Below, piece by piece: positions 26,762 through 43,197 of a stretch of 64,000 nucleotides of DNA. The notes beneath the pieces were generated by a model. It saw only the letters and a program-made list of their open reading frames with translations, did no database searches and was not told the origin of the DNA. How positions within the stretch are numbered: position 1 is the first letter of the stretch; every line of letters starts with the position of its first letter. The position numbers were made by a program, and so were the translations under genes. The DNA is from Candidatus Harrisonbacteria bacterium (GTDB lineage: Bacteria > Patescibacteriota > Minisyncoccia > UBA6257 > 1-14-0-10-40-38): positions 719 through 64,718 of the forward strand of contig JAHFLD010000001.1 in NCBI GenBank assembly GCA_023245035.1, written 5' to 3'.

Positions 26762-27826
26762 TTATTGCTTCGCGAGCGGATTGTGCGCCCCAATCACCTC
26801 CACGTGCACATGACATCCCGTCGTTCCTCGCACATTGCCGGTGTTTCCCATTTCGCCAATCAAAGTTCCTTTTTTGATATAATCGCCAACCTGAACTTTA
26901 GTTTTCTGCAGGTGAGCGTAACGGGTTGAAGTTTTGTTTGGATGCTCAATGCCCACCAACCCGCCATAGCCATAATTCCACTGTTGAGGACCCAGCACCT
27001 CGGAGACCAAACCCTCCGCCATCGCGTAAACCGGCGTGCCGCAGGCATTAGCCACATCAACCGCGTTATTAAAATGCACCTTGCCCCAATTGAATCCGGC
27101 CGCCGGCAAACCAAAATAGCCATCAAGGTTCGGCAATGGCCCGGAGGTGCCAACAACCGCTGTTCGCGGTGATCCGCCGGGAATAATCAACATATCGCCG
27201 GACGCTATCGGACCCCGCGCCAAACGAGCAACGTTCGTCGCCCTAACTTTGGCCTCATCAATTCCATAAGTCCGCGCGATCCCGGAAACTGTTTCACCTT
27301 CAGAAACCCGATGCAAAACACCCGCGACCGGAAGCACCAAAATCTCCTGACCGGGAATGAGTGAGCGCGAGCGAAGCGAGGAATTGGCCCACAAAAGAGT
27401 GTTGACCGAAATTTGAAACTGGGAAGCAATACCGGAAAGAGTGTCTCCCTTTTTAATAATATAATTTATAATGCCGTCTCTTAGCGGACTAAAACCGCCA
27501 GCCGGCCCGGTTGTAGTTAAAAGAGAATCGCCGTCGACCAACGTCATCTCGTCCAGTGGATCATGAAGATCGGCGGCATCGGGGTTAGCGAGTGTGCTAT
27601 CGTAAAAACCCGCCGGCGCCAAATTGTCGTGTTCAGCGGCCAATATCTCCGCCAACTCCGGACCACCGGCAACCTGACTGCTTCCCACCAAGGTTTCCGT
27701 CGAACCAAAAACCACATTAGCCGCGATCCCGGCTAAGAAAAAAACGACCGCTAGAACGGCTGATATGCTAAAATTATGGGGTTTTTTGAGTAGCGTACCA
27801 ATGTGGATCAAGATAGCACGAATCAT
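26762..27826 (-). CDS. Peptidase M23 family protein with two LysM domains and an N-terminal membrane anchor.
   Basis: LysM repeats (YIIKKGDTLSGIASQF..., HRVSEGETVSGIARTYGI...). M23 metallopeptidase motifs (HxxxD context, GEMGNTGNVRGTTGCHVHVEV). Start chosen at MIRAILIH (27826); the ORF track extends to 28018. Confidence 0.7.
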   Translation of the reverse strand: MIRAILIHIGTLLKKPHNFSISAVLAVVFFLAGIAANVVFGSTETLVGSSQVAGGPELAEILAAEHDNLAPAGFYDSTLANPDAADLHDPLDEMTLVDGDSLLTTTGPAGGFSPLRDGIINYIIKKGDTLSGIASQFQISVNTLLWANSSLRSRSLIPGQEILVLPVAGVLHRVSEGETVSGIARTYGIDEAKVRATNVARLARGPIASGDMLIIPGGSPRTAVVGTSGPLPNLDGYFGLPAAGFNWGKVHFNNAVDVANACGTPVYAMAEGLVSEVLGPQQWNYGYGGLVGIEHPNKTSTRYAHLQKTKVQVGDYIKKGTLIGEMGNTGNVRGTTGCHVHVEVIGAHNPLAKQ

Positions 27827-29639
27827 GTCCGACCTCAACCCCAAACAATCCCAAGCGGTCAACCACCCAAACGGCCCGCTCCTCATAATTGCCGGCGCCG
27901 GATCCGGCAAAACCAAGACCCTTACCGGCCGAGTGGCCCACCTGATTGAACGCGGCGTTCCTCCGGAAAGAATTATAGCCATAACTTTTACCAATAAGGC
28001 CGCCAAAGAAATGGCCAACCGCGTCCGAACGCTTCTCGCTTCGCGTTTAAATCAAAAAAAACAGCTCGCCATGCCATTTCTGGGAACCTTTCACGCCTTT
28101 GGCGCCCGACTTTTGCGTCAAGAAGCCCATCTTCTGGGACGCACGCCGGCCTATACCATTTTTGATGACGGCGACACCCTTAGTCTTATAAAAAACGTCC
28201 TGGCCAACCTCGGTCTAAGTCGCGAAAAGATGCCCCCGGCCAAAGCGTGTTACTTAATAGGTAAGATTAAAAACGAAATCAAGGATGACCTCGGCGAAGA
28301 TTCCATAATTCAAGCGGTATATGAAGCCTACGAAGAAGCTTTGCAAAAAAACAACGCCTTTGATTTTGAAGATTTAATAGAAAAACCCGTCCGCCTTTTT
28401 GAGCGCCACCCCGCGGTCAAAACTCGCCACCAAAACCTCTTTGACCACATCTTGGTAGACGAGTTCCAAGACACCAATCCGGCACAATATCGGCTTCTGC
28501 GCCACCTCGCTGAAAAACACCAGAACATCAGCGCGGTCGGGGACGACGCCCAAAGTATTTACCGTTTCCGCGGATCGGACTTCCGAAATTTTTTAAATTT
28601 CGAAAATGATTGGCGCGATGTTGCTGTGGTAACTTTGGACCAAAACTATCGCTCAACCGGCACTATTCTTAAAGCCGCCGGCGGTGTCATTGGTCACAAT
28701 ACTCTGCAAAAACCCAAAACTCTGTGGACCGAAAACGAAGCCGGGGAACCGATTACGGTCATTAAGACCATCAACTCGGAAGACGAGGCGGAAACCATCG
28801 GCGACGCCATTTGGAACACCATCCGCGCCGAAAGACATCTTCCTAAAAAAAGCGACGTTGCCATTCTCTACCGCACCAACGCCCAATCGCGGGCCATTGA
28901 ACAAGCGCTTATTGTCCGCAATATCAACTACGACGTCTTCGGCGGGCTCAAATTCTACGAGCGCAAAGAAATCAAAGACATTGTTGCCGGTCTCCGCTTG
29001 GCTCATAATCCCCAAGACTCGGTAAGTCGCGATCGCCTGCAGAAAACCTTCGGCAAACGAGCCGGTGAGCCGATTATCCAAGCCATGATTCAAAGCCCCA
29101 AGGGCGAACAGCCGGCAACCGCGATTGGACGCTTTGTTGATTCCTCAAGTTACGCCCGATACCTTCGGATCAAGTTTACCAATGCCGAAGATCGCTTGGA
29201 AAACGTCCGCGAATTAATCTCCTTTGCCGCCGGCTTTACTGAACTGGGAGACTTCTTGGCAAGAGTGTCTCTCCTTGAGGGCGGGGATGGCAAGGGAACG
29301 GGAGGCGAATCACAACAAGCTCAATTGGTGGGATCTCCCACCGTTCATTTGATGACCATTCACCTGGCCAAGGGCCTGGAATTTGATCGGGTGTTTGTGA
29401 TTGGCGCAAGCGAAGGCATCCTGCCGCACAATCGCTCGCTTACAAGCAACGACGAGCTGGAAGAGGAGCGGCGGCTCATGTATGTTGCCATCACCCGAGG
29501 CCGAAAAAAAGTGACGCTCTCTTTTTTTGGCTACCCTTCGCGCTTCCTCTACGAAATTCCCGGCGACGCGGTGGAATTTATTGATCACAGTGGACGTGGA
29601 ACAACACTCAACGAAGAAGCGATATATCTTGAAGAATAA
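27825..29639 (+). CDS. uvrD: UvrD/PcrA/Rep-family ATP-dependent DNA helicase.
   Basis: LNPKQSQAV...GPLLIIAGAGSGKT Walker A, DEFQDTN, and YRS/TG motifs. An alternative in-frame start lies at 27801. Confidence 0.85.
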   Translation: MSDLNPKQSQAVNHPNGPLLIIAGAGSGKTKTLTGRVAHLIERGVPPERIIAITFTNKAAKEMANRVRTLLASRLNQKKQLAMPFLGTFHAFGARLLRQEAHLLGRTPAYTIFDDGDTLSLIKNVLANLGLSREKMPPAKACYLIGKIKNEIKDDLGEDSIIQAVYEAYEEALQKNNAFDFEDLIEKPVRLFERHPAVKTRHQNLFDHILVDEFQDTNPAQYRLLRHLAEKHQNISAVGDDAQSIYRFRGSDFRNFLNFENDWRDVAVVTLDQNYRSTGTILKAAGGVIGHNTLQKPKTLWTENEAGEPITVIKTINSEDEAETIGDAIWNTIRAERHLPKKSDVAILYRTNAQSRAIEQALIVRNINYDVFGGLKFYERKEIKDIVAGLRLAHNPQDSVSRDRLQKTFGKRAGEPIIQAMIQSPKGEQPATAIGRFVDSSSYARYLRIKFTNAEDRLENVRELISFAAGFTELGDFLARVSLLEGGDGKGTGGESQQAQLVGSPTVHLMTIHLAKGLEFDRVFVIGASEGILPHNRSLTSNDELEEERRLMYVAITRGRKKVTLSFFGYPSRFLYEIPGDAVEFIDHSGRGTTLNEEAIYLEE

Positions 29640-29656: not shown

Positions 29657-30478
29657 ATGCCGCGCCTCGGACAACATTTTCTAAAAAAAACTTCGGCGAC
29701 TAATACCATCGTCAACGCCCTCAACTTAAAAACCGGTGAAACGGTTATTGAAATCGGCCCCGGAACCGGCGTTCTTACCTGGCCGCTTCTCAAGCGCTGT
29801 AACGAGGTCCAAAGCCGGCTTATCGTAATTGAGCGCGACCCCAAACTCGCCGACGAATTGGCTGAAAAAAATTCAAACCTGAACCTAATCCGTGGCGACG
29901 CGCTTAAGGTAATTCCGCAAATACTAAAAAATCACAACAAAGAAGTGGGCCAAATGCCCGGGTCCCGCGCCAACTTTAAAGTTGTTGGCAACATTCCTTA
30001 CTACATCACCGGCGCCCTACTACGAATGCTGGGCGAATTGAACGAACCACCAATCCAAATAGTGATTATGATTCAAAAAGAAGTAGCCGAAAGATTGGTC
30101 GCCAAACCGCCACGAATGAACCTACTCGCCGCCGCAACCGGGTATTGGGCCGAATCCCAAATTTTAGAAACCCTCGCCCCGGAAGATTTTTCACCGCCAC
30201 CCAAAGTTTCCTCGGCAATAGTCTCTCTGCGAAGCAAGCCCCAAAAAACAACAGCCGAAAGAGAGGCTTATTACCGTTTTATTAAGGCCATCTTCCGTCA
30301 ACCACGAAAAACCATCCTCAATAACCTAAAATCCGCCTATGGCCAAAAAAAAGAGGAAGCAATCAAGGAAGTATTGCTTTCCCAGGGCCTAAGTGGTCTG
30401 GAACGACCACAAAACATCAGTCTGGAAATATTAACAGCTCTCTCAACTTGTGTTGCGCATATGCGCATAATAGAATAG
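29657..30478 (+). CDS. rsmA: 16S rRNA (adenine1518/1519-N6)-dimethyltransferase.
   Basis: LGQHFL N-terminus, (V)IEIGPGTGVLT SAM motif, and NIPY motif. Confidence 0.88.
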   Translation: MPRLGQHFLKKTSATNTIVNALNLKTGETVIEIGPGTGVLTWPLLKRCNEVQSRLIVIERDPKLADELAEKNSNLNLIRGDALKVIPQILKNHNKEVGQMPGSRANFKVVGNIPYYITGALLRMLGELNEPPIQIVIMIQKEVAERLVAKPPRMNLLAAATGYWAESQILETLAPEDFSPPPKVSSAIVSLRSKPQKTTAEREAYYRFIKAIFRQPRKTILNNLKSAYGQKKEEAIKEVLLSQGLSGLERPQNISLEILTALSTCVAHMRIIE

Positions 30479-30482
30479 AAGG

Positions 30483-30773
30483 GTGATCAAGCTTGCGGCG
30501 CTTTTACTGCTCGTGCTTGCTTCCTTTTTTGTGGTGCATCCAGCCCATGCGCTCTATTTTTTCGGCGGTAAAATCGTAGCCATCGCCCCGCCAGCTCCCT
30601 ACGGCCCTTGCTCGTCGGCTTCAATCTTTGTCGTTGGCCCCCGTCCCGGAGTTTTTATGCTTCCGCCCGGCATTCTTTATGCCTACCGCGCCATCCATGT
30701 CGGAGCGTTAGTTTTGGGTAGCGCCACCCAGGCCCAATGCGGCACTATTTTTTACATGGGAACCAGTTATTAA
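30483..30773 (+). CDS. Small secreted hypothetical protein (GTG start).
   Basis: Signal peptide MIKLAALLLLVLASFFVVHPAHA. 96 aa with two Cys. First gene of the T4SS-like block. Confidence 0.35.
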   Translation: MIKLAALLLLVLASFFVVHPAHALYFFGGKIVAIAPPAPYGPCSSASIFVVGPRPGVFMLPPGILYAYRAIHVGALVLGSATQAQCGTIFYMGTSY

Positions 30774-30788
30774 GCCTGTTTTACAACA

Positions 30789-31559
30789 ATGAAAAAACTG
30801 ATTGGAATTGCCATACTTCTCTCCTCGCTCGCGCTCGCCATTTTCATCCTGCGAGAAAATAAGCCCGTCGCCATAAACACCGAAGCGCAAACGCCATTCG
30901 AAACTCTGGCCTCAATTCCGGAAACTCTGCCCATAACTACAAAAATCGAAGCACCGGCCAAAGACGCGCTACCGGAAAAAAACATCACCCTTCAAGTCAG
31001 TCAGCAAATTGCCGAAGAGTTTTTGAAAAAAAATCCCAACGGCCCGGATCTGCTTTCCGGTGAAAATTTCGTGAACGCGATTGAACCGGAAAAATTGGTG
31101 GAAAATCTAGTTTCCGGCAAGCTTGGCGACGAAGCCCTGGCCGACTTCAATCCCGTTATTACCGCCACCGAATTAAACCTTATTCCCGCCAAAGATAAGG
31201 AGGCTTTGCGGGCCTATCTTGAAAAATTCAACGCCGTCATTCAAGACAACGCCGGCGGACTGAATGTTGATTTTTCCAATCCGACAGCCGAAGACTTTGA
31301 CCGCATCGTTCGTGTCGGTGAAAAAACCATCGCCGCCTTTTACGCCCTGCCAGTTCCACCACCCGTTATCAATATCCACAAAGAAGAACTGCGCTTGCTG
31401 ACCATCCAACGCAACATCTTCCGCAACATCAGCAACTACGCAAACGACCCGCTCCGCGCCTGGGTTTCTATTGAAATGTACCAACAAAATGAAAAGGAAT
31501 TCGCCGAATTAAAACAAAAAATCGCTGATTTCGTAAAAACCAACAACCTCGGCGTATGA
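30789..31559 (+). CDS. Hypothetical membrane-anchored protein.
   Basis: N-terminal transmembrane anchor; no recognised domain. Confidence 0.4.
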   Translation: MKKLIGIAILLSSLALAIFILRENKPVAINTEAQTPFETLASIPETLPITTKIEAPAKDALPEKNITLQVSQQIAEEFLKKNPNGPDLLSGENFVNAIEPEKLVENLVSGKLGDEALADFNPVITATELNLIPAKDKEALRAYLEKFNAVIQDNAGGLNVDFSNPTAEDFDRIVRVGEKTIAAFYALPVPPPVINIHKEELRLLTIQRNIFRNISNYANDPLRAWVSIEMYQQNEKEFAELKQKIADFVKTNNLGV

Positions 31560-33016
31560 AAACCAAATTCCTCAAAATCTCCGCCGGCTTCCTGACGCTT
31601 ATAATTTTGGCCAGCCAAGTATTGATTTCGCCCCCCAAAGCCCGCGCCATCGCCGCCGCCCCGCTTTCGGTGCCAACTTTTGAAACTAATCCGGTGGTGG
31701 TAACCGCGGTCTCTAGCGAAACTTCCCAAACCTTCTTTGAGTGGGCGCAAACCTTTGTTTTGGAAACTCTCAAAAAAAGAATTTTAGATATGATGGTTGA
31801 CCAAATCGTCGTCTGGATTCAAGGCGGCGGCAAACCAAAATTCATTACCAACTGGGGAGATTTTCTCGCCGAAGCCGGTAATGCCGCGGTGGGGGATCTG
31901 GCCAAAGAACTGGGGCTTGGCTTTCTCTGCTCGCCATTTAGTTTGCAAATTCAAATCGGTCTCCTGCCGGTTCAACGCTTTTCCAAAAGGGCGTCCTGCA
32001 CGCTGGATAAGATTGTCAGCAACATCAATGGTTTTTACGCCAACTTTAGGAACGGCGGCTGGATTGCCTACAGCTCCGCCTGGGAACCGCAAAACAATTT
32101 TGCCGGCGCCAGTCTGATTGTAGACGCCGAAGTCGCCCGGCGTCGAGAAAAAGCCGAATCAAGCGCCTACGCCGAAGCCCAAGCCGGACACGGCTTCCTC
32201 TCCACCAAAAAATGCGACAAAGATAAAAATGGTAAGGACATTGCAAGCACCTGCGTCATCACCACCCCGGGAGACACCATCGGCAACCTCGTATCGAAAG
32301 CTGTTGGTAGCGACATTGATTACATCTTGAGCGCCAAACAACTCTCTCAATATGTCGCCGCGATTTCCAACGCCCTCATCAATCGCTTAATCATTGAAGG
32401 CGTTAACGGCCTTCGCGGTCTCACCACCGCCGCCGCTCCGCAGGGCGGCGTGATTCCCCGAAGCGCCACCGGCAATTGCGCCGGCCTTCGTGGCGGATCG
32501 CTAAATGCCTGCCTCTCCTATGGTTCCAGCAACAACCTAAACGCCACCTCAACCTTAATCACTCAGATCAACCTCTCCCTTAATCCGCGCCTGGAAGCTC
32601 AAAACTCTTTTACTAATAGCATCAGCCAGCTTCAATCCTACGCGCAATCCTTGCAAGGATTCCTTAATACGCTAAACACCAGCAGCTGCCCCTTGCAAAG
32701 TCTCCGTGTTCAAAATGTCCAGACCGAAATCAGCTGGACAAGTAGCACCATCACCGACCTGCAAAACCAAAAAAATACCAATCAAACAACCATCGACAAC
32801 CTCAACCGGCTTCTCGCTCAAGTTCGCGCCCTGCCACCTAACAGCTGGCAACAAATTAGCGACCTCTCGGTTCAACTAAACTCACAACTCAATGCCGCCG
32901 ACGCCCAGACTGTTCTGCAGGGCGCCCAAAGTCAGTCAAACGACATCAGCTCTCGTATCAGCCAAAACACCCAAACCCTCGGTCAAAGCGCTACCCTTTG
33001 TAGTCTGGGCCAATAA
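31556..33016 (+). CDS. Hypothetical secreted protein with an Asn/Gln/Ser-rich C-terminus.
   Basis: Signal anchor and a low-complexity C-terminal half. Overlaps the previous gene by 4 nt. Confidence 0.4.
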   Translation: MKTKFLKISAGFLTLIILASQVLISPPKARAIAAAPLSVPTFETNPVVVTAVSSETSQTFFEWAQTFVLETLKKRILDMMVDQIVVWIQGGGKPKFITNWGDFLAEAGNAAVGDLAKELGLGFLCSPFSLQIQIGLLPVQRFSKRASCTLDKIVSNINGFYANFRNGGWIAYSSAWEPQNNFAGASLIVDAEVARRREKAESSAYAEAQAGHGFLSTKKCDKDKNGKDIASTCVITTPGDTIGNLVSKAVGSDIDYILSAKQLSQYVAAISNALINRLIIEGVNGLRGLTTAAAPQGGVIPRSATGNCAGLRGGSLNACLSYGSSNNLNATSTLITQINLSLNPRLEAQNSFTNSISQLQSYAQSLQGFLNTLNTSSCPLQSLRVQNVQTEISWTSSTITDLQNQKNTNQTTIDNLNRLLAQVRALPPNSWQQISDLSVQLNSQLNAADAQTVLQGAQSQSNDISSRISQNTQTLGQSATLCSLGQ

Positions 33017-33021
33017 ATAGT

Positions 33022-35148
33022 ATGAAAATCTTTTTTAAAAAAGTCGTTCTGCTCATCCCCTTGATCGCCATAGCCGGATCTTTAAGTCTTGGCCTCGCAA
33101 CGGCGCGAGCCCAATCTCAACAGCCAGCAATCCCGCCTCTCAACACTGGTCTTCCAAGCCCAACACAAGAAGCAAAAAGCTCTAGTGCCAACCTCGATTG
33201 TGGCTGGGGCAACATTGGAGACTGCTTCCTCGGTGGAATTAAAAATGTTTTCCTCGGAATTGCCTATGTTATCGGGCTTTTGGGTAGCAAGGTTTTGCAG
33301 CTTATGGCCGGTCTTTACAATTTCGCTATTCAGCAAAACTTTAAAATTCTGGAAAATGGCAACTTCATAATTAATGCCGGCTTCCGAACCTCACTCTCGG
33401 TTGTCAACCTCGGCTTTGTATTGGCCATAATTCTGATGGCCTTCAGTTGGATCTTGGGCATTGAAAGCTATAGCGGTAAAAAAATGCTCTTTAAATTAGT
33501 AACCGCGGCCTTACTGGTAAACTTTAGCCTGCTTATCGTCGGGGTTTTTCTGGATTTTAGCCACGTCATCGCCACCAGTTTTATCGGCGGAGATCCGGCA
33601 ACAACCATTGTTAAGACCTTTAATCCCCAAAAAATATTGGCCCTTAAAGATGGCGACTTCCGAAGTGGGAGTGATTTTTGGGTTGATTTAATGAGTCGCC
33701 TACAAACAAGCGTCTTTCAAGGAATTCTCACTTGGGTTATCGCCATTACCCTTGGAGGGCTCGCTATCATGGTCGTGGGGCGCTATATCATCTTAAGTAT
33801 TCTAATCGTCACCATGCCATTTGCTTGGTTGTTCACTGTTTTGCCCAAGTACGAAAAAATTCATAGTGAGTGGTGGTCAAAATTTTTAGGACAAGTCTTT
33901 TTCCTGCCCGCCGTAAGTTTTTTCGTCTATCTTGCGATTGGAACATATAGCAACATAGATCCATCTAAAGGCGGAATTGATCAGATCGCCTCTGCCTTTG
34001 AGCAAGGCAACTTCGTCAATAATTCATTCCAATATGCCCTTCAAACCATCGCCTTCGTCGCCCTGCTTTGGGGCGGCATGATCGCGGCCGCGAAAATTGG
34101 CGACAAGGCCGGCAGCGCCGGCATTGGTTTCGCCGGCTATCTTAAAAATACCGCGCTTGGTAAAAATAAAACCCTTAATAAAGGGCTCGCTGCTGGCGCC
34201 GCTGGAGCTGGAGTCGTTGCGGGAAAGGGAACCAGGGTCGGTCTCTCCAGACTATCTCGCAAAATTGGCCTAAGTGGAATCGCCGACCGCTTAAGCGGTG
34301 TTAGCAACAAAGACAAAGTTGAAACTTATCGAAAAGGCGCTTTTGGCAAGATGAACGACGAACAATTGCGTATTGCTGCCAAGAAGAGTTACCTGGACCC
34401 AGTGCATAAAGCCGCCCTGCTTGCCGAACTCACCGCCAAAAAGAAGCTGGATTATCTGCCAAAAGATAACTGGGAAGATTATGGTCGCGTCGCCATGGCT
34501 CAAAACCCCGGTACCTCGAGCAAGGACATTGAAGCTATCAAATTAATGGGAGAGAAGAACCCCGAGCTTGCCGGCAAACTTCTTACCGACACCGACATCA
34601 AGCGCGCCCTAGAGGAAGACGAAACAAAAACCCGTGACGCCGCCAAGAAGAGCGGTACCGCTTACACGCCCAAAACCAAAACCGAACAAGATGCGGTCAT
34701 TGAATCAGCTCGCCAAAAAGCCATTGTAAACGCCGCCAAAAAACTAGACGCCGAAAAAGCCAAAGACCTTTCCGAAGAGGCGCTTCGTAAAACCGCTATC
34801 GCCGGCAGCCTATCCGACGTTGCCGCCAAAGGTGTTATCCAAAGCGGCAACCTCAAAAAACTAAAAGCTCTTAAAGAAGGCTTGGAAGCGGTGAAAGATG
34901 GCGCTTCAGCCTCAGTTAAAGATGCTAAACACTATGACGACGAGCTCCGCGATCTCAAAAAACAGCTACAAGACGCCAAAGATCGCAACAATAATAACAA
35001 AATTGATGATATAAAAAACAAGCAAAAAGCTGCTGAAGAGAGAAAGAAATTACACATAGAAGCCATGGACGAAAAAGACCGTAATGATTTCCGGGCAATC
35101 AAGAACCTCCACACCATTGAACAAACCATTGCCGGTATTGACGACTAA
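33022..35148 (+). CDS. Polytopic membrane protein, VirB6/TrbL-like by topology (putative secretion-channel subunit) with a Lys/Ala/Asp-rich coiled-coil tail.
   Basis: Signal peptide, then at least 6 transmembrane segments, then a charged repetitive tail of about 300 aa. Position upstream of the PrgI/VirB3-like and VirB4 genes matches monoderm T4SS order. Assignment is by architecture only. Confidence 0.4.
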   Translation: MKIFFKKVVLLIPLIAIAGSLSLGLATARAQSQQPAIPPLNTGLPSPTQEAKSSSANLDCGWGNIGDCFLGGIKNVFLGIAYVIGLLGSKVLQLMAGLYNFAIQQNFKILENGNFIINAGFRTSLSVVNLGFVLAIILMAFSWILGIESYSGKKMLFKLVTAALLVNFSLLIVGVFLDFSHVIATSFIGGDPATTIVKTFNPQKILALKDGDFRSGSDFWVDLMSRLQTSVFQGILTWVIAITLGGLAIMVVGRYIILSILIVTMPFAWLFTVLPKYEKIHSEWWSKFLGQVFFLPAVSFFVYLAIGTYSNIDPSKGGIDQIASAFEQGNFVNNSFQYALQTIAFVALLWGGMIAAAKIGDKAGSAGIGFAGYLKNTALGKNKTLNKGLAAGAAGAGVVAGKGTRVGLSRLSRKIGLSGIADRLSGVSNKDKVETYRKGAFGKMNDEQLRIAAKKSYLDPVHKAALLAELTAKKKLDYLPKDNWEDYGRVAMAQNPGTSSKDIEAIKLMGEKNPELAGKLLTDTDIKRALEEDETKTRDAAKKSGTAYTPKTKTEQDAVIESARQKAIVNAAKKLDAEKAKDLSEEALRKTAIAGSLSDVAAKGVIQSGNLKKLKALKEGLEAVKDGASASVKDAKHYDDELRDLKKQLQDAKDRNNNNKIDDIKNKQKAAEERKKLHIEAMDEKDRNDFRAIKNLHTIEQTIAGIDD

Positions 35149-35154
35149 AAATCT

Positions 35155-35880
35155 ATGCCCGAAAACAGCCAACCACAAAACTCGTTTGAACGCCTGCCTT
35201 TTGGCATCCAACAGTTATTAACTTCGCCCCAAACCGTAGACGCCATAACCGAAATTAACGACTCGCGCGTCTCTCCGGAAAACGACGGCGTTATTCCGCG
35301 CCTTCTCCTGCGCTTGATGCTCAAAAAAATCTATCCGCAAAATTTCATCGCCGAGCTCCGCTCAAATCTCAATGTGGACGGCGAAACCGCGAGACTTATC
35401 GCGCGAGACCTGGTGAAATCCATTCTTGGCCCCGCCAAAGAAACCATCAAACGAGAGCTGGAAATTGACATTGGACTTATCGAACTCGGCGGCGAAGAAG
35501 CGATCCCCGACGCCGCTCTTTCTCCGGCTATCATCGCTCCCGAAGTCGCTAATCTGCCAAAATTCGCCCCAGAAACAAAAATACCAACAACCCCAATCGC
35601 CGAAATAACACCCACCCCAACAATCTACGACGGTGAGTCGCCACTCATCATCCACGAAGAAAAATCTCCGATTGTCGCCGGCGCCGAACCCGTCGTGCCA
35701 TCCTTTAACTACAAGCCCAAAGAAGAATCCTATTGGCGCTCCGCCGAACCAAAGCCCATCGCGGTTCGCGTCGAAACTCCCAAAAACGCCCTAGCCAATC
35801 CCGAACCAAAAAACCCTCGTCGGATCGTCCACTACAGCAATTTTAGAACACCCCTCAACGATGCGAACGATAAAAAATAA
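35155..35880 (+). CDS. Hypothetical Pro-rich protein.
   Basis: 241-aa ORF in operon context; no recognised domain. Confidence 0.35.
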   Translation: MPENSQPQNSFERLPFGIQQLLTSPQTVDAITEINDSRVSPENDGVIPRLLLRLMLKKIYPQNFIAELRSNLNVDGETARLIARDLVKSILGPAKETIKRELEIDIGLIELGGEEAIPDAALSPAIIAPEVANLPKFAPETKIPTTPIAEITPTPTIYDGESPLIIHEEKSPIVAGAEPVVPSFNYKPKEESYWRSAEPKPIAVRVETPKNALANPEPKNPRRIVHYSNFRTPLNDANDKK

Positions 35881-35883
35881 TTA

Positions 35884-36420
35884 GTGTCTCGCATCACCAC
35901 TATGCAATTCCAAGTCCCACAATTTATTGAGACCGAACCGAAAATCGTCGGCCCTTTGACGCTCAAGCAATTTGGCTTCATAGCTGTGGCTAGCATCGTG
36001 AGCTTCTTGTTGTTTTTTATCTTTGAAATCTGGCTTTGGCTGCTATTCACGGTCATCCTTGGTAGTATTGCCGCCGGTATGGCTTTTTTGAAATACGAAG
36101 GCCAACCCATGCCGCGCATTGTCGTGGCCGCCATCAGATACAAACTCTCGCCAAAACTTTACCTTTGGAAAAGCGACACTACCGCTCCCGGGTTGGCCAT
36201 GCCGCACATACCGGAAAATTTAATCCACAAGGGCAGGCGAACACCGCTTAAAGAACTTGCCGAAAAAATCGTCACCACTACCCACGCCATTGAAAAACGC
36301 GAGAAACCTCTGCACCCTTTTGATTTTTTGCACCTGCCAAACAAAATCCAAGAACGTTTTGAAGCGCTAAAAAAGACCACTGGTGAAAGAGAAATGGCTC
36401 GCCGCGTTGATTACCGCTAA
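35884..36420 (+). CDS. PrgI-family / VirB3-like small membrane protein.
   Basis: N-terminal (M)QFQVPQFIETEPKIVGPLTLKQF followed by two transmembrane helices, as in PrgI-family proteins that precede VirB4 in Gram-positive conjugation systems. Confidence 0.5.
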   Translation: MSRITTMQFQVPQFIETEPKIVGPLTLKQFGFIAVASIVSFLLFFIFEIWLWLLFTVILGSIAAGMAFLKYEGQPMPRIVVAAIRYKLSPKLYLWKSDTTAPGLAMPHIPENLIHKGRRTPLKELAEKIVTTTHAIEKREKPLHPFDFLHLPNKIQERFEALKKTTGEREMARRVDYR

Positions 36421-36470
36421 ACACCTCGTGGCACGGCCCGCCCGAACAAGATACAATTAAAGACAAACTC

Positions 36471-37157
36471 ATGGATGCTACCAATAAAACCCCAAACCCG
36501 GCTACCCAAGACTTCGTGGAAATCAAAGACGTCCGCCAGGGAGTGGTTATGTTAAAAAACGGGGGACTGCGCAAAATCGTCCTCGTTTCCGGCACCAACT
36601 TCGATCTAAAATCGGAGGAAGAACAGGGATTGATTTTAAGCGCCTTCCAAAATTTTTTAAACGGTTTGGATTTTAGTCTCCAGATTTTTATTCACTCCCG
36701 AAAACTCAACATTGAGCAATACTTGCAAAACCTTGGCCGGCGCTTGGAGCAAGAAACCAACGGTCTCCTCAAAAATCAAATTACCGAATATCGGGAATTT
36801 ATTCGAACCCTCGTGGCCGAAAACGCCATTATGAATAAAACCTATTTCGCGGTCATTCCTTACGACCCAATCCAAATCGCGGAAACCGGAAAAAAACTAG
36901 CCGGCAGCGTTTTGGGTCTTTTCAACAAAAAACCGGCGATCCCGGCAGACGATAGTCTAACCGAAGAAAAATTCTCCGAATATCTGGAACAGCTCAACCA
37001 GCGGGTGGAACAAGTGGTCAGCGGTCTTAACCAAGTTGGTTTGCGCGTAGTGCCTTTGGAGGGGGATGAGTTGACCGAACTTTTTTACAACCTCTACAAT
37101 CCCGGCGCCATCGAAAAAACCGACATCGAAACTTCCGCCATTAAAAAAACACCATGA
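36471..37157 (+). CDS. VirB4-family ATPase, N-terminal domain, encoded as a separate ORF.
   Basis: DFVEIKDVRQG...FDLKSEEEQ..ILSAFQNFLN...QI resembles the N-terminal domain of ConE/PrgJ-type VirB4. Stop overlaps the next ORF start (ATGA). Confidence 0.6.
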   Translation: MDATNKTPNPATQDFVEIKDVRQGVVMLKNGGLRKIVLVSGTNFDLKSEEEQGLILSAFQNFLNGLDFSLQIFIHSRKLNIEQYLQNLGRRLEQETNGLLKNQITEYREFIRTLVAENAIMNKTYFAVIPYDPIQIAETGKKLAGSVLGLFNKKPAIPADDSLTEEKFSEYLEQLNQRVEQVVSGLNQVGLRVVPLEGDELTELFYNLYNPGAIEKTDIETSAIKKTP

Positions 37158-38866
37158 ATGAAGCTGTCAAAAACTTAATCGCTCCACCGGCCATTGAAGC
37201 CGAATTTAATCACCTAAAACTCGGCGATGGTTTCGCTAAAACGATTTTTGTCTTTACCTATCCGCGATATTTGACCACCGGCTGGTTCTCACCACTCTTA
37301 AACTTGCCAAACTTGATTGATATCTCGCTCCACATCAACCCCATCGAAACTCCAATCGCGCTAAAAAATCTCCGCAAAAAAGCGGCTGAAGTTGAAGCTC
37401 AAATCAACGAAAACGAATCCAAGGGCTTGGTTCGCAATCCGATGCTGGAAACCGCTCTGCGCGATATCGAAAATCTGCGGGACACTCTCCAACAGGCCGA
37501 AGAAAACCTCTTTAGTCTCGGTGTCTACATCACACTCTATGCCCCTGATCTCAAGACGCTAAACAATCTGGAAGAGCAAATCCAGGGCTTGCTCGAATCG
37601 CGCCTGGTCTACGCCAAACCCGCCGTCTTCCGCCAACTTGAAGGATTCACCTCGGTCTTGCCGCTGGGCATCGACCGGCTTCAAATCAAGACCCCAATGA
37701 ACTCCAGTCCAATCTCCTCCTTCTTCCCCTTTGTCTCCATCAACTTAACCTCGGAAGAAGGCATCCTCTACGGCGTCAATCGGCACAACAATACCCTTAT
37801 CATCTTTGATCGTTTCTCTTTGGAGAACGCCAACATGGTGATTTTCGCCAAATCCGGCGCCGGCAAATCTTACACCACCAAGTTGGAAACTCTACGCAAC
37901 TTAATGCTTGGCGTGGACGTGATTATTGTTGATCCGGAAAATGAATACGAACGCCTCGCCGAAGCGGTAGGCGGAAGTTTCTTTCGTATCTCGCTGGCCT
38001 CTGATCACCACATCAACCCCTTTGAGATACCGGCGGTGCCCGAAGACGAAAGCCGCGGTGACGCCTTGAAATCACACATTGTCGTTCTTACCGGCCTGCT
38101 TAAAATCATGCTTGGAAAGATTACCGCCGAAGAGGATGCCTTGCTCGACCGCGCGATTACCGAGACTTACGCCTCGCGGGAAATTACTCCGGAAAAAGAT
38201 TTTTCTAAAATCCCGCCGCCGCTTTTGGAGGACTTGGAAGCAGTACTCGCCAACATGAACGGAGGACGGGGGATTGCCGAACGCCTTTACCGCTTCACCA
38301 AGGGCAGTTTTGGCGGCTTTTTGAACCAACCAACCAACGTGGAAAGTCGCAATCGCCTCGTCGTCTTCTCTATTCGCGACCTGGAAGAAGAACTTCGCCC
38401 GATTGCCATGTATATTATTCTGAATTACATCTGGAATATCGTTCGCTCCGAACTCAAAAAGCGAATTATGATTATTGATGAGGCCTGGTGGATGATGAAA
38501 CACGAAGACGGCGCCCTCTTCCTCTTTGGTCTCGTAAAACGCGCCCGCAAATACTTCTTGGGAGTAACTACGGTCACCCAAGACGTGGAAGATTTTCTGC
38601 AATCGCCTTACGGTCGCCCGATTATAACCAACTCGTCGCTCCAGCTTCTGCTCAAGCAATCGCCAGCCATGATTGATGTTGTCAGCAAGACCTTTAACCT
38701 AACCGAGGGCGAAAAAAGCCTTTTATTGGAATCCGATGTCGGCAATGGATTATTTTTTGCCGGACTCAACCGCGTGGCCATTCAAATCATCGCCTCTTAT
38801 TTGGAAGACGAGATAATCACCACCAATCCGGAACAAATCCTGGAACAGCGCGCCGCCGCCAAATAA
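37154..38866 (+). CDS. VirB4-family ATPase, C-terminal ATPase part.
   Basis: Walker A (FAKSGAGKSYTTK), IIVDPENEY, and Walker B (IMIIDEAWWMM). Confidence 0.8.
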   Translation: MNEAVKNLIAPPAIEAEFNHLKLGDGFAKTIFVFTYPRYLTTGWFSPLLNLPNLIDISLHINPIETPIALKNLRKKAAEVEAQINENESKGLVRNPMLETALRDIENLRDTLQQAEENLFSLGVYITLYAPDLKTLNNLEEQIQGLLESRLVYAKPAVFRQLEGFTSVLPLGIDRLQIKTPMNSSPISSFFPFVSINLTSEEGILYGVNRHNNTLIIFDRFSLENANMVIFAKSGAGKSYTTKLETLRNLMLGVDVIIVDPENEYERLAEAVGGSFFRISLASDHHINPFEIPAVPEDESRGDALKSHIVVLTGLLKIMLGKITAEEDALLDRAITETYASREITPEKDFSKIPPPLLEDLEAVLANMNGGRGIAERLYRFTKGSFGGFLNQPTNVESRNRLVVFSIRDLEEELRPIAMYIILNYIWNIVRSELKKRIMIIDEAWWMMKHEDGALFLFGLVKRARKYFLGVTTVTQDVEDFLQSPYGRPIITNSSLQLLLKQSPAMIDVVSKTFNLTEGEKSLLLESDVGNGLFFAGLNRVAIQIIASYLEDEIITTNPEQILEQRAAAK

Positions 38867-38869
38867 AAC

Positions 38870-39199
38870 ATGGAACCAAAAATCAGCGGAGTTGAGGCCA
38901 CACTGCTTATCATCGTCGCCGTTGTTGCCGATCTGATTGGCCTCATTCCCATCGTTAACATCATTGGTACCTTGATTAGTCTTGCCATAACCCAGGCCTA
39001 TTTTAGAATCAAAGGGGTCAAAGCCACCGCGAGCCTCGTCGCCCAGTTGATTGATTTAATCCCGGTCTTAAGCATCTTACCGGCAACCACAACCGGTGTC
39101 GCCATCGTCCTCTGGATCGACCGCCACCCAAAGGGTATTGCCGCCAAAACCACCAACCTTGCAAGCGCCATCAAAAAACCAACACCCACGCCTAAATAA
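38870..39199 (+). CDS. Small hypothetical membrane protein.
   Basis: 109 aa with two or three hydrophobic helices; directly follows VirB4. Confidence 0.35.
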   Translation: MEPKISGVEATLLIIVAVVADLIGLIPIVNIIGTLISLAITQAYFRIKGVKATASLVAQLIDLIPVLSILPATTTGVAIVLWIDRHPKGIAAKTTNLASAIKKPTPTPK

Positions 39200-39200
39200 T

Positions 39201-40058
39201 ATGAAATCTTTTGCAAAATATTCCATCATTTTTACCGCCTTAATAATAAGCATCACCCTGCGCCCTGCGCTCTCCTTGGCTCAAAACGCCAGCGATGCCA
39301 AACTCAACGTTCCAATTCCCGGCCTGGAAGACGTCAAAGTTGGCGTGAGTAACAGCACCGATAATTCCGGCAACAAGGCGCCCGATCTTGAGGGAATAAA
39401 AAAATATTTGAACGCGATCTACCGCTACGGCCTGGGCTTGGGAGCGCTAATGGCAATTCTGCGCATCGCCTATGCCGCCATTAAGTACTCAACCTCGGGA
39501 GGAAACAGCGGCTCTCAAGGCGAGGCGATGGAAATTATTAAAGACTCGCTGTGGGGGCTGGGATTGCTCTTACTCGCCACGCTTATTTTAAACGTCATCA
39601 ACCCCAAGGTTTTTACCCTGGACTCGGGTAGCGGAGGTAATGCGGGCTCTAGAAATAACTCGGGCAACACCAGCAACCAACCGCCGTCACCACCGCCAGC
39701 ACCACCCCTGCAAGCCGTTAGTGGCAGTCAAAGCGGACCAGTACCCACAGATTTCTCTGGTGCCCCAGGAAATCTAGTCAATGCGCCAGGCGTCGATCCA
39801 AATAAGTTTTATTTCTCTTGGAAAGACAACGCCAGTAATGAAACTAAATATGAAGTATATGAAATAACAGAAAATCCAACCGCCCCTTTGGGAATCTACG
39901 AAACAAAAATCGGAGAAGCTGGGCCTCAAAATGGGGGTAATGTTTTAGTTGGAACATCACTAACTAGCACCCCGGGAACAGCAAGAAGATTTGTCGTATA
40001 TGCTTACGGCCCAGATGGTCAAAGAGTAAATTCTCAACCACTCGAGATTAGCTACTAA
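39201..40058 (+). CDS. Putative pilin-like protein (VirB2/TrbC-like topology) with a C-terminal Pro-rich linker and a beta-rich extension.
   Basis: Signal peptide, then two hydrophobic helices separated by a short polar loop (AILRIAYAAIKYSTSGGNSG...GLGLLLLATLILNV), then PPSPPPAPP and an FN3-like tail. Low confidence. Confidence 0.3.
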   Translation: MKSFAKYSIIFTALIISITLRPALSLAQNASDAKLNVPIPGLEDVKVGVSNSTDNSGNKAPDLEGIKKYLNAIYRYGLGLGALMAILRIAYAAIKYSTSGGNSGSQGEAMEIIKDSLWGLGLLLLATLILNVINPKVFTLDSGSGGNAGSRNNSGNTSNQPPSPPPAPPLQAVSGSQSGPVPTDFSGAPGNLVNAPGVDPNKFYFSWKDNASNETKYEVYEITENPTAPLGIYETKIGEAGPQNGGNVLVGTSLTSTPGTARRFVVYAYGPDGQRVNSQPLEISY

Positions 40059-40486
40059 GCGATCGGTTTTATAATCACGCACCGTTCTCGGCCCTCGCCC
40101 AAACTCTCCGTTTTCACCTCCGGATGAATGGAAAGTTCAACATGAACCAACCGGCGTTCGTAGGCATTCATTGCCGGCAAATGCACCGGCGCCTTGCCGG
40201 CCAACGCCTTGCGCGCCGCCGCCTTGGCCAAGTCAACAATAATTCGCTCGCGCTCCTTGCGATAGTTGTTAACGTCTACAAAAAAAGTTCCGACGTCTAA
40301 TTTTTTAGCGATAAGACGCACCAAGTGATCAAGATCGTGCACAACCTCCGGCAAGTGCTTCTTAAACCAATCGCTTTCATTGGCAAAAACGCTCACCTTG
40401 CGGGCTTCCAGATCAAAATCAACCGCCGGCTCAACGAGCCCGAGTAATTCAACGAATTTCTTGACCTGCTCCTGAAAGGTTTCCAT
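40055..40486 (-). CDS. jag: Jag/KhpB-like R3H-domain RNA-binding protein.
   Basis: C-terminal R3H motif (MNAYERRLVHVELS) and position downstream of yidC. Confidence 0.75.
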   Translation of the reverse strand: METFQEQVKKFVELLGLVEPAVDFDLEARKVSVFANESDWFKKHLPEVVHDLDHLVRLIAKKLDVGTFFVDVNNYRKERERIIVDLAKAAARKALAGKAPVHLPAMNAYERRLVHVELSIHPEVKTESLGEGRERCVIIKPIA

Positions 40487-41183
40487 GGGGTTTTAAATCA
40501 AGTGATCGAGTAACAATGAATTGCTGGAAGATCGAAAACAGCGAAGTAACAACCCAATAAAATCCGATAGCCGCTGGAAGCTTCAATAAAATAAAAAAGG
40601 TAATCAATGGGCCGATAAAAAGCATCTGCTTACCCATGGCCGTGGCTGGAGTAGAAGCACTCTGCTTGGGCAAGGCCGCCTTGGCCTGAAAATATTGAGC
40701 AACCACCGCTAGAACCAGAACTATCATACTGGGCTTTGTAAGATCAATCAAGCCAAAAAAACTCGCCTGAATCGGCGATACGGGGGCAATAAAGGAATAA
40801 AGGCTCTTTAGCGAAGCGGTGGCGGTAAAATCATTCAAGAAAACCCGATAAAGAGCGATCAACACCGGCAACTGCAAAATCAACAAGAAAATTCCGGAAA
40901 ACGGATTAAACTTGTGCTCTTTGTACAACTCCATCAATTTCGCCGCTTGCTGGTGTTTATCGTCCTTGTGGGTCTCCTGAATTTTCTTAATATGCGGTTG
41001 CAATCTCTGCATCACCAATTGATTTTTGAAACTCTTATAAAAGAGCGGATACAAGACAAAACGAATCAAAAGCGTCAGCAATATAATAGCCAAACCAAGA
41101 TCGCGAAAAGCCACCGTGTTGTACAAAAACACCAAGGCGTTGAAAAGGGGGCGGTATAAAACCTCGGTAAAGAAAGTTTTCAT
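40449..41183 (-). CDS. yidC: Membrane protein insertase YidC (short form).
   Basis: Five transmembrane helices with the conserved LLIRFVLYPL...QLPVLIALY region. Confidence 0.85.
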   Translation of the reverse strand: MKTFFTEVLYRPLFNALVFLYNTVAFRDLGLAIILLTLLIRFVLYPLFYKSFKNQLVMQRLQPHIKKIQETHKDDKHQQAAKLMELYKEHKFNPFSGIFLLILQLPVLIALYRVFLNDFTATASLKSLYSFIAPVSPIQASFFGLIDLTKPSMIVLVLAVVAQYFQAKAALPKQSASTPATAMGKQMLFIGPLITFFILLKLPAAIGFYWVVTSLFSIFQQFIVTRSLDLKPHGNLSGAGQEIR

Positions 41184-41509
41184 ATATGGGGTAGGTAATG
41201 GGTTAAATCCCGCGCCAATCGCTCTCGCAGTTCGGCAGAACTGGGCCCGCTCGCGGGTGGCAAAAGTGTTAGCACTATATCACAAGGAGCGATCTTTGAA
41301 TAAATCAGTCGGGCCGCTCCAAAGAAAACTCTCTTTAGGCGATTTCGCTCTACGGCGGTAGCAAAAGATTTTTTTGGGGTCACCACTCCAAAACGGGGAT
41401 AACCAACGGTGGTGGAAAAAACCTTAAAAATCGCGTATTCCAACCTAATCACTTGCCCTCGCCGGCTCAAAAACTCCCCAACCCGAAGTCGTTGGGCTTT
41501 AGCCAACAT
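41180..41509 (-). CDS. rnpA: Ribonuclease P protein component.
   Basis: KAQRLR N-terminus, RNR(L)KR motif, and position between rpmH and yidC. Confidence 0.8.
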   Translation of the reverse strand: MLAKAQRLRVGEFLSRRGQVIRLEYAIFKVFSTTVGYPRFGVVTPKKSFATAVERNRLKRVFFGAARLIYSKIAPCDIVLTLLPPASGPSSAELRERLARDLTHYLPHI

Positions 41510-41514
41510 TAAAC

Positions 41515-41649
41515 TTATACGGTTAGCCGCTTCCGACCCTTGGCGCGGCGGCGACTCAAGACCTTTCGCCCGTTAGCGGTGCGATTTCTCCTCAAAAAAC
41601 CATGAGTTCTGGCTCGCTTTCTCTTCTTCGGCTGATAGGTTTGCGACAT
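41515..41649 (-). CDS. rpmH: 50S ribosomal protein L34.
   Basis: Hand translation gives [44 protein letters not shown] (44 aa). Missing from the ORF track because it is under 60 aa. Confidence 0.85.
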
Positions 41650-41823
41650 GGGGATTATGGTAGCAGACACCAGCCTCTCACGCAAGTCAAAAGTTCCTTA
41701 ACTAAATTAAAAAATGAGTTCTCCACAGGTAATGCACAGCTTTCACCCAAAAGCTTCTTTGACTCGCTTGTGGGTAAGCATACAATGGATAAAGATTAGC
41801 CGATTTAATTTGTATTCATCATT
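41650..41823. promoter_or_regulatory. rpmH-dnaA intergenic region with DnaA-box-like 9-mers (candidate oriC part or dnaA promoter).
   Basis: TTCTCCACA (41719), TGTGGGTAA (41768) and AATGGATAA (41786), each at most 2 mismatches from TTATCCACA / TGTGGATAA. Confidence 0.5.
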
Positions 41824-43197
41824 ATGGAGTTCGACCAACTATGGCAGTCGGCTCTTGGAGAAATAGAACTCCAAGTTTCGCGCCCAAATTTTGTGACCTG
41901 GTTTAAAAATAGCAAGCTCATCGACAAAAAAGAGGGGACGGCGCTTATTGGTCTGCCCAACAACTTTGCCAAAGAGTGGGTGGAGAACAAATACAACAAG
42001 GTAATCCTTGGGACCTTGCGTGGCATGGATGACAGCACTAAAAAAGTGGAATTTGTCGTCTACAACGAGCGTACCGCTCAAAAACCGACCATCAAATCCG
42101 GAACTAAAGTTGCTATCAATAAAAACGATGATTTTGGCCAGCTATCTTTTAGTGAGTTTAAAGTTGATCAAGTCACCAATCTAAATTCTAAATACACCCT
42201 AAGCTCCTATGTTGTCGGCAAAAGCAACGAGATGGCCTACGCGGCGGCCATGGCGGTAATTGATTCGGTGGGAAACAAATACAACCCCTTATTTATCTAC
42301 GGCGGAGTCGGCTTGGGCAAAACCCATCTTATGCAAGGCATGGGTAATGAGGTAGCTCTAAAATACGGGGGCAAAATCAGAGTGAAATACGTCTCTTCGG
42401 AAAAATTCACCAACGACGTCGTTTGGGCTATTAGAAACAAGCGCATGGAAACAGTTAAAGAAAAATATCGCCTCATTGATATGTTGATTATCGACGACAT
42501 TCAATTCATTGCCGGCAAACCCAGCACCGAAGAAGAATTTTTTCACACCTTTAACGCCCTCCATGAAAACAACAAGCAAATTATCATCTCCTCCGATCGC
42601 CCGCCAAAGTTCATTCCAACCCTCGAGGAGCGCCTCCGCTCGCGTTTTGAGGGTGGAATGGTGGTTGACATCGGGGTACCCGATTACGAACTGCGCTTGG
42701 CTATTATTCGATCCAAGCTCCAAGACAAAAAGGCTGTTTTAAGCGATGAGATCATTGACTTAGTAGCCAACAAGATTCAAAAAAACTTCCGTGAAGTTGA
42801 GGGTATCATCAATAAAATACTCTTCTACCAAAGCCGAAAAAATGGCGAGATAACCGCTAAAAACGTTGAGGAAATTATTAGCGAATCCAGTCAGGAACCC
42901 ACCAAAAACATCAACCCTAACCTGATTATTAAAGCCGTAGCTGAATTCTCCGAAATAGCGCCATTGGACCTGCTCAACAAATCTCGCAAAAAAGAAGTGG
43001 CCGAAGCCCGACAAATCCTGATGTATCTTCTGCGGGAGATGCTTCAGCTATCCTATCCTCACATAGGCCGAAGAATCGGCAAACGCGATCATACCACCGC
43101 CATTTATGCTTATGAAAAAATTGCCAGGGAAATCCAAAAAAATCCGGCCCTTAACCAAAAAATTCTTATTATCAAAGAATTAATCAGCAAGGGTTAG
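41824..43197 (+). CDS. dnaA: Chromosomal replication initiator DnaA.
   Basis: AAA+ Walker A (GGVGLGKTHL), sensor motifs, and a C-terminal DNA-binding helix-turn-helix. Confidence 0.92.
   Translation: MEFDQLWQSALGEIELQVSRPNFVTWFKNSKLIDKKEGTALIGLPNNFAKEWVENKYNKVILGTLRGMDDSTKKVEFVVYNERTAQKPTIKSGTKVAINKNDDFGQLSFSEFKVDQVTNLNSKYTLSSYVVGKSNEMAYAAAMAVIDSVGNKYNPLFIYGGVGLGKTHLMQGMGNEVALKYGGKIRVKYVSSEKFTNDVVWAIRNKRMETVKEKYRLIDMLIIDDIQFIAGKPSTEEEFFHTFNALHENNKQIIISSDRPPKFIPTLEERLRSRFEGGMVVDIGVPDYELRLAIIRSKLQDKKAVLSDEIIDLVANKIQKNFREVEGIINKILFYQSRKNGEITAKNVEEIISESSQEPTKNINPNLIIKAVAEFSEIAPLDLLNKSRKKEVAEARQILMYLLREMLQLSYPHIGRRIGKRDHTTAIYAYEKIAREIQKNPALNQKILIIKELISKG

Follow-up and report, generated by a model that had tools for sequence, protein, structure and literature searches.

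A chromosomal type IV secretion gene block with no relaxase or coupling protein nearby, beside the dnaA cluster of a Paceibacteria genome

We analysed a 64 kb stretch of DNA (the window) from a metagenome-assembled genome of Candidatus Harrisonbacteria (Paceibacteria; Parcubacteria), focusing on a block of ten genes at positions 30483–40058 that an earlier reading of the sequence, here called the original prediction, had described as a minimal, monoderm-type type IV secretion system (T4SS) fixed near dnaA. An open reading frame (ORF) scan recovered ten intact, co-directional and tightly packed ORFs on the + strand, designated g1 to g10 in order of position, and the same ten genes are called in the public annotation of this contig (ENA ERZ27280176, contig k141_2769979, 183 kb). 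Their spacing is operon-like: 4-bp overlaps join g2 to g3 and g7 to g8, and the remaining gaps measure 1–15 bp, except for the 50 bp between g6 and g7. Promoter and terminator scans showed no difference from shuffled expectation. The stop codon of rsmA/ksgA (29657–30478, +; PF00398, 2.6e-48) lies 4 bp 5′ of g1, and g10 overlaps at its 3′ end with the convergent jag, which opens a cluster of jag, yidC, rnpA and rpmH on the − strand and dnaA and dnaN on the + strand (40055–44527), a putative origin region. Both flanks are those named in the original prediction and their order recurs in related species, which places the block in the core chromosome. The block is the chromosomal, relaxase-less T4SS already described for ultra-small Patescibacteria and not a new discovery; because its component set, the absence of a relaxase and its location are all contained in the survey of Quinonero-Coronel et al. 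2025 (PMC12102498), the finding restates published knowledge.

Three consecutive genes, g6 to g8, matched curated families of core T4SS components. The PrgI/VirB3-like protein encoded by g6 (35884–36420, +; the public call starts at 35902) contains a transmembrane (TM) hairpin and matched PrgI (PF12666) at 1.8e-12 in a Pfam profile search (48.1 bits against a gathering score of 27), with a further match to TcpE at 0.0031. Downstream, g7 (36471–37157, +) is a separate ORF for a TrsD-like VirB4 N-terminal domain, matching positions 98–233 of VirB4_plasma (NF045975) at 3.9e-11 and TrsD (NF041427) at 6.8e-7, and is TraC-like (PF26593) in the public annotation. It adjoins g8 (37154–38866, +), which encodes the middle and C-terminal P-loop domains of a VirB4 ATPase of the MPF_FATA/CD1110 type. 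This protein matched the VirB4 CD1110 family (NF045971) at 6.5e-111, with 371.9 bits against a cut-off of 325, and P-loop_TraG at 1.9e-26; its closest solved relative is the C-terminal domain of a Thermoanaerobacter VirB4 (PDB 4AG5, 1.4e-42). Walker A (GAGKS) and Walker B (DEAW) are intact and these residues are invariant across homologues. The PrgI/VirB3-like, VirB4 N-domain and VirB4 ATPase calls of the original prediction are thus borne out by profile matches, those of g6 and g8 above their thresholds.

Alignment with PrgJ of the enterococcal plasmid pCF10 gave 26% identity over PrgJ residues 225–772 (E=5e-37). Since the match begins only at residue 225, g8 lacks the first ~220 residues, which are supplied by g7. 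For comparison with relatives, one genome per species was scanned, yielding 80 loci with VirB4 identities of 55–76%, most of them carrying Patescibacteria-lineage names. The VirB4 N-domain and the ATPase are separate ORFs in 75 of these 80 species, indicating that the two-ORF arrangement is a stable feature and not a frameshift or assembly error. The other five loci (L004, L010, L027, L031 and L032) encode a fused protein of 768–790 aa; a pilin of ~100 aa is also present in L010, L027 and L031, the latter two of which visibly lack g2 and g3.

Upstream of these genes, g4 (33022–35148, +) encodes a polytopic membrane protein with a signal peptide, approximately six TM segments by hydropathy and a charged C-terminal tail of 308 aa containing 64 K/R and 53 D/E residues. 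The g4 protein itself gave sub-threshold matches to CD3337/EF1877 (NF046089, 3e-5) and MMCAP2_0566 (0.013). Among 40 positional orthologues, four matched Pfam TrbL/VirB6 (best 4.5e-7) and nine matched CD3337/EF1877 (best 1.8e-8), and a profile of the TM domain aligned in hhalign with Orf15 of Tn916 at P=4.9e-4 and with PrgH at P=0.12. The profile search of g4 against the PDB recovered no solved VirB6 chain, its matches running mostly through the coiled-coil-like charged tail. Topology and gene position are compatible with VirB6. The protein is therefore likely VirB6-like on family-level evidence, so that the earlier VirB6 call has weak, family-level support from orthologue matches, topology and position and is not demonstrated by g4 taken alone.

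The last gene of the block, g10 (39201–40058, +), encodes a VirB2-like T4SS pilin module close to virB4. Its start is most likely the ATG at 39201, as in the public annotation, giving 285 aa, and not the GTG at 39096. The protein matched T4SS_pilin (PF18895) at 4.4e-7, with 30.3 bits against a gathering score of 26.6, and the Mbov_0395 pilin-like family (NF045849) at 3.6e-5. It comprises a signal peptide, two hydrophobic helices forming an alpha-hairpin, a G/S/N/P-rich linker and a beta-rich C-terminal domain of ~85 aa. A single-sequence AlphaFold2 (AF2) model, of low confidence overall, placed helices at residues 63–98 and 103–133 and six strands within 202–284, with predicted local distance difference test (pLDDT) values of ~70–77 in the hairpin and ~45–55 in the C-terminal domain. 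The pilin-like call and its two-helix, linker and beta-rich-tail layout accordingly agree with the Pfam match, hydropathy and AF2, and the structure prediction that had been suggested returned the hairpin and the strands at that low confidence. The pLDDT of the C-terminal domain was too poor to justify a fold search; a resemblance to FN3, an idea formed by eye, was not upheld, phmmer against the PDB returning nothing significant.

In the related loci, the median length of a pilin-like ORF is 356 aa and the maximum ~1,200 aa; the T4SS_pilin hairpin, where located by Pfam, is near the N-terminus. Particularly long ones, of 440–1220 aa, lie 3′ of virB4 at L061:3650-5122, L067:3148-6513, L069:12226-15894, L071:11661-14795 and L054:11917-18571, in arrays of up to four; the three longest were recognised only by a hidden Markov model (HMM) built in the present analysis. 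The ORF at L061:3650-5122 is a fusion of T4SS_pilin with Peptidase_M23. The C-terminal extensions contain no recognisable adhesin domains, and a term search of the main text of PMC12102498 found no mention of them. At the other extreme are the compact loci that combine a fused VirB4 with the ~100-aa pilin. The long extensions, one of them bearing an M23 domain, hint at a possible role of the pilin module in displaying adhesin or enzyme domains; we regard this as a lead and not as a result.

The remaining five proteins matched no family, and hydropathy and composition agree with their earlier descriptions as secreted, membrane-anchored or Pro-rich, as they do for the other genes of the block. 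Between the VirB6-like and PrgI-like genes, g5 (35155–35880, +) encodes a protein of 241 aa with no TM segment and 12% Pro, consisting of an N-terminal domain of ~110 aa and a low-complexity tail; neither it nor 40 orthologues matched Pfam, NCBIfam or PDB entries. Directly 3′ of virB4, g9 (38870–39199, +) encodes a small membrane protein with three TM segments and a nearly invariant Asp in TM1, again with no Pfam, NCBIfam or PDB match; its orthologues begin a median of 22 bp 3′ of virB4. From their conserved positions, g5 and g9 look like unrecognised conserved T4SS components. Comparison of g5 with pCF10 and Tn916 proteins found no similarity, and hhalign found none for g9 as a second pilin or as an analogue of PrgF or PrgG.

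At the 5′ end of the block, g1 (30483–30773, +; 96 aa, also a public gene call) has a hydrophobic, signal-peptide-like N-terminus, no Pfam or NCBIfam match and no homologue in the 80 related loci; the gene is lineage-specific and may or may not belong to the secretion system. Two accessory components follow. The membrane-anchored protein g2 (30789–31559, +; 256 aa) has one N-terminal TM segment, and matched nothing in Pfam, NCBIfam or the PDB; a word-based homologue search found three proteins only. Its alignment looks helical and bears no sign of a VirB8-like fold, and a VirB8-like identity was dropped, as the PDB profile search gave nothing relevant and PrgL, PrgD and Tn916 Orf13 all failed to match in hhalign. 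The secreted protein g3 (31556–33016, +; 486 aa) carries a signal peptide, a conserved N-terminal domain with conserved Cys residues, several of them invariant, and a C-terminal helical bundle. AF2 reached pLDDT >90 only over residues ~330–480, in the C-terminal bundle, and did not model the N-terminal domain. Foldseek against the PDB returned nothing at E<=0.001, generic helical bundles only; these results, together with hhalign searches against PrgK and Orf14 that gave nothing, led us to reject g3 as a VirB5-like protein or a hydrolase. The g3 family is large, with 5548 cluster representatives (50% identity) at E<=1e-3 and 2476 at E<=1e-30, and has no annotation.

The original prediction had stated that no cell-wall hydrolase was visible. 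A gene for an M23/LysM peptidoglycan peptidase (26762–28018, −; PF01551, 1e-23; LysM, 1.7e-19), divergent from pcrA, lies 2.5 kb 5′ of the block on the opposite strand, so the statement holds only inside the block. Homologues of this gene occur in 16 related loci, mostly adjoining pcrA/rsmA. The peptidase is a possible hydrolase partner of the T4SS.

The original prediction had suggested checking conservation and synteny, and across the 80 species both were largely retained. Presence was counted by tblastn and iterative HMM search, using only loci with enough flank. By this measure g7 was found in 79/80 loci, g6 in 71–74/80, g4 in 48/50, g5 as a positional orthologue in 56/65, g9 in 52/76 and a pilin-like ORF in 52/63; the positional orthologue of g2 occurred in 27/42 and g3 in 26/42. 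The cluster is followed by jag/yidC/dnaA in 43 of 53 loci and preceded by rsmA in 33 of 41, so that the order rsmA, g4-g5-g6-g7-g8-g9-pilin, jag-yidC-rnpA-dnaA-dnaN is largely kept, and the site near dnaA, dnaN, rnpA, rpmH and ksgA is that of the Paceibacteria pattern. Few proteins of the locus are as well conserved as VirB4: in all 45 loci where both are present, its identity is higher than that of DnaA, on average by 9.6 percentage points. The exposed g2, g3 and g10 evolve faster than the core. This protein conservation points to strong purifying selection on the apparatus. The best 120 VirB4 homologues share 69–100% identity and, where named, belong to Patescibacteria/Paceibacteria metagenome-assembled genomes (Harrisonbacteria, Wolfebacteria and others), a similarity pattern that, with the 26% identity to PrgJ, fits membership of the Patescibacteria VirB4 clade.

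A gene scan covering every ORF of at least 300 aa in the window found no relaxase (MOB), VirD4/TcpA-type ATPase, that is, type IV coupling protein (T4CP), or integrase; the span free of MOB and T4CP genes extends ~30 kb upstream and 24 kb downstream of the block, as expected from the original prediction, which had none in view. The G+C content of the block (0.48–0.51) equals that of its flanks, with no composition anomaly. The nearest tRNA gene is 12 kb away and none is adjacent. No att-like repeats bracket the block, the repeat search for boundaries having given short chance repeats only.

These data bear on two readings in which the block would derive from a mobile element. It could be the mating-pair-formation module of an ordinary integrative and conjugative element (ICE) with its relaxase, coupling protein and integrase encoded beyond the window, as might be argued from the homology of VirB4, PrgI and the VirB6-like protein to Gram-positive conjugation proteins and from the relaxases reported in 103 of 3,035 Patescibacteria genomes (PMC12102498). 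We consider this very improbable. In dozens of species the block sits at one site, with the same housekeeping genes on either side; it shows none of the composition shift, integrase, adjacent tRNA, att repeats or variable presence of such elements, and has no relaxase or coupling gene over the span given above; conserved synteny, together with a VirB4 better conserved than DnaA, argues for a vertically inherited core apparatus and not an ICE. Even less credible is the idea that an ancient conjugative element has left the block behind as a decaying, non-functional relic. The missing relaxase, T4CP, VirB8 and VirB1 and the division of VirB4 over two ORFs could be read that way, but none of the ten ORFs is disrupted, the Walker motifs do not vary, VirB4 is among the best-conserved proteins of the locus, and its division is kept in 75/80 species with overlaps of the translational-coupling type. 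The earlier view of a domesticated apparatus rather than a transferable element therefore agrees with the profile matches, the conserved synteny, the absence of mobility signatures and published conclusions.

The nearest published counterpart is the T4SS found by Quinonero-Coronel et al. 2025 in a survey of 3,035 Patescibacteria genomes, whose VirB4 proteins form a monophyletic clade nested in MPF_FATA, with genes for TrsD, PrgI/VirB3, VirB6 and VirB2-like (PF18895) proteins near virB4 (PMC12102498). These genomes contain almost no relaxases, and T4CP (VirD4-like) homologues lie far from virB4 in most; in Paceibacteria and Microgenomatia the cluster adjoins dnaA, dnaN, rnpA, ksgA and rpmH, the Paceibacteria layout being given in Fig. 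6 of that study. The present block shares VirB4 with an adjacent TrsD-like protein, PrgI/VirB3, a likely VirB6-like protein and a PF18895 pilin, no relaxase or T4CP nearby, and a position next to ksgA/rsmA, rnpA, rpmH, dnaA and dnaN. We found no essential difference; the positional conservation of g5 and g9 and the long pilin extensions are additions. The only experimentally tested member of this kind is the T4SS of the saccharibacterium Southlakia epibionticum (SEML1_0006-0019), for which transposon sequencing by Wang et al. 2023 showed that the T4SS genes and a pilin array are essential for epibiotic growth, comEC being dispensable (PMC10633639). That cluster is likewise Gram-positive-like, contains pilin genes and lacks a recognisable relaxase or coupling protein; it differs in belonging to Saccharimonadia, in its array of six pilins and in the peptidase and lysozyme genes directly 3′ of virB4, whereas the present block has one pilin-like gene, no hydrolase and another accessory gene set. 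A 2025 review places the Patescibacteria systems in the T4SS superfamily as a new branch (PMC12857230). The original prediction of a minimal, monoderm-type T4SS fixed near dnaA is in line with all three publications.

The other systems compared are conjugative. The Prg/Pcf system of Enterococcus faecalis pCF10, the MPF_FATA prototype, has the gene order VirB6-like PrgH, VirB3-like PrgI and VirB4 PrgJ, and the same order here agrees with the earlier comparison with Gram-positive conjugation modules. Unlike the block, pCF10 encodes the T4CP PcfC, the relaxase PcfG, the hydrolase PrgK, the VirB8-like PrgL and the LPXTG adhesins PrgB and PrgC; it lacks a VirB2-like pilin and has its VirB4 in one polypeptide. 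No similarity was found between g2, g3, g5 or g9 and PrgD-M or PcfA. A separate TrsD, related to the VirB4 N-terminus, stands next to the VirB4 ATPase TrsE in the Trs systems of Staphylococcus pGO1/pSK41, which differ in being plasmid-borne conjugation systems with relaxase and T4CP and which the block resembles through the TrsD/TraD profile match of g7 alone. Families from Mycoplasma ICEs (Mbov_0395 pilin-like, Mbov_0397 VirB4 and MMCAP2_0566) were matched by g10, g7/g8 and g4, some as the best NCBIfam match; those systems are mobile, and matches other than VirB4 fell below cut-off.

Taken together, we consider it highly probable that the block is a Patescibacteria-type T4SS derived from monoderm MPF_FATA machinery, core-chromosomal in Paceibacteria and vertically inherited, with a role in a host-dependent lifestyle rather than in conjugation. 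The apparatus is identified by its gene content and intact ATPase motifs, and with its conserved synteny it is non-mobile; pilus formation, transport substrate and transport direction we infer. In the mechanism that we propose by analogy with T4SSs already characterised, the split VirB4 motor (g7 and g8) would dock at the membrane through PrgI/VirB3 (g6) and the VirB6-like channel (g4), assisted by g5, with no TM segment, and g9, with three. The machine would pull the VirB2-like pilin g10 out of the membrane and polymerise it into a host-contacting surface filament or tube, and g2 and g3, perhaps with g1, would act outside the membrane. With no relaxase or coupling protein nearby, its function would be host adhesion and macromolecule exchange with the host and not conjugation. 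Expression and imaging data on relatives provide context: in Paceibacterales cultures, genes for proteins with T4SS-pilin domains ranked among the unknown genes with the highest expression (PMC10936435), and a 2026 preprint described tubular structures at the parasite–host interface, maybe T4SS pili, and argued for uptake of host RNA (bioRxiv 10.64898/2026.06.21.733656).

Several points weigh against this interpretation. The clade placement of VirB4 rests here on sequence similarity, g4 scores under every curated cut-off and matched no solved VirB6 chain, and no VirB8-like or VirB1-like protein was found within the block. The large C-terminal extension of g10 is absent from canonical VirB2 pilins, so pilus polymerisation is not assured. 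A VirD4-like protein may be encoded elsewhere in the genome. Function in the source organism is predicted from its genes, and the essentiality data come from Saccharimonadia, another class with another cluster layout.

Two rival accounts concern what such a machine might transport. One is import of host DNA, RNA or other macromolecules into a nucleotide-auxotrophic epibiont, comparable to archaeal Ced or Helicobacter ComB. For Patescibacteria T4SSs, uptake of DNA or other macromolecules has been proposed (PMC12102498), the preprint cited above argues for RNA, the S. epibionticum T4SS is essential where ComEC is not, and g8 has weak P-loop similarity to CedB (5.7e-12) and CedD (4.1e-4). Both of these matches are far under cut-off, however, the likeness to CedB being confined to the common ATPase fold (45 bits against a cut-off of 700), and Pfam and NCBIfam profile searches of the block recognised neither a CedA/CedA1-like protein nor a ComB-specific component, so that neither CedA/CedA1 nor ComB2-4 with ComB6-10 accompanies the VirB4-like ATPase. 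We regard import as possible but rather unlikely. The other account is export or adhesion, with a decorated pilus, or delivery of g1–g3 or M23-type enzymes onto or into the host envelope, or both. The operon is headed by three genes with signal peptides or membrane anchors, the fast-evolving g2, g3 and g10 are the exposed parts, related pilin-like proteins carry the long and once M23-bearing extensions, and Wang et al. suggested protein export for the Saccharibacteria cluster (PMC10633639). The Sec-type signals of g1–g3 mean that no T4SS is needed for their export, neither an effector nor a recognition module of the T4CP type was identified, and the extensions lack recognisable adhesin domains; we hold this account tentatively, as one that may yet be correct.

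A more speculative and, in our judgement, unlikely extension of the preferred reading is that the Paceibacteria 'VirB2-like pilins' are modular display proteins in which a flexible Pro/Gly/Ser linker connects an N-terminal hairpin to a C-terminal domain that evolves fast and measures 85 to >1000 aa (M23 in one species). The T4SS might then build a filament decorated with adhesins or enzymes, or the hairpin might anchor host-attacking enzymes, and g5 and g9 could replace the missing VirB8/VirB1-type parts. The analysis thus adds modest new leads to the published picture, namely g5 and g9 with no family match, the large unannotated family of secreted g3 proteins, and the extended, sometimes enzyme-bearing pilin-like proteins. 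Few machines have been tied by experiment to host dependence in this very large and mostly uncultivated bacterial radiation, and the Patescibacteria T4SS is one of them. The present locus, a clean and compact Paceibacteria case with ten genes and one pilin gene, offers a possible minimal model for structural studies.

The claim that the block lies next to the replication origin is deduced from the dnaA gene cluster; no GC-skew inversion accompanies it. Cumulative GC skew falls monotonically over the window with no sign change at dnaA-dnaN, and the origin is therefore not pinpointed by skew. G+C dips to 0.39–0.45 at 42–45 kb, around dnaA (41824–43197). Four DnaA-box-like 9-mers lie in the spacers flanking dnaA, two per spacer; as each has one mismatch, they are weak evidence for an origin.

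Elsewhere in the window, the upstream ORFs are housekeeping genes, encoding NusA, a proton-translocating pyrophosphatase (H+-PPase), trigger factor, ClpP, tyrosyl-tRNA synthetase (TyrRS), ribonucleotide reductase (RNR), RecG, glycogen genes, serine hydroxymethyltransferase (SHMT), FolD, PcrA and RsmA. Downstream, the housekeeping ORFs encode Jag, YidC, RnpA, RpmH, DnaA, DnaN, penicillin-binding protein 1a (PBP1a), RuvC, YebC, a PilB-type ATPase, RuvB, TsaE and arginyl-tRNA synthetase (ArgRS). The PilB/T2SSE-type ATPase (49186–50859, +), with an MshEN domain and a link to type IV pilus assembly, is encoded 9 kb 3′ of the block. Two ORFs, at 14788–16092 (−; 434 aa) and 25508–26608 (+; 366 aa), had no Pfam or NCBIfam match. 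A protein of 406 aa (12714–13934, +) carries a lamin-tail domain (LTD) and gave a weak match to the extracellular nuclease ExeM; it is possibly a surface DNA-binding or nuclease protein.

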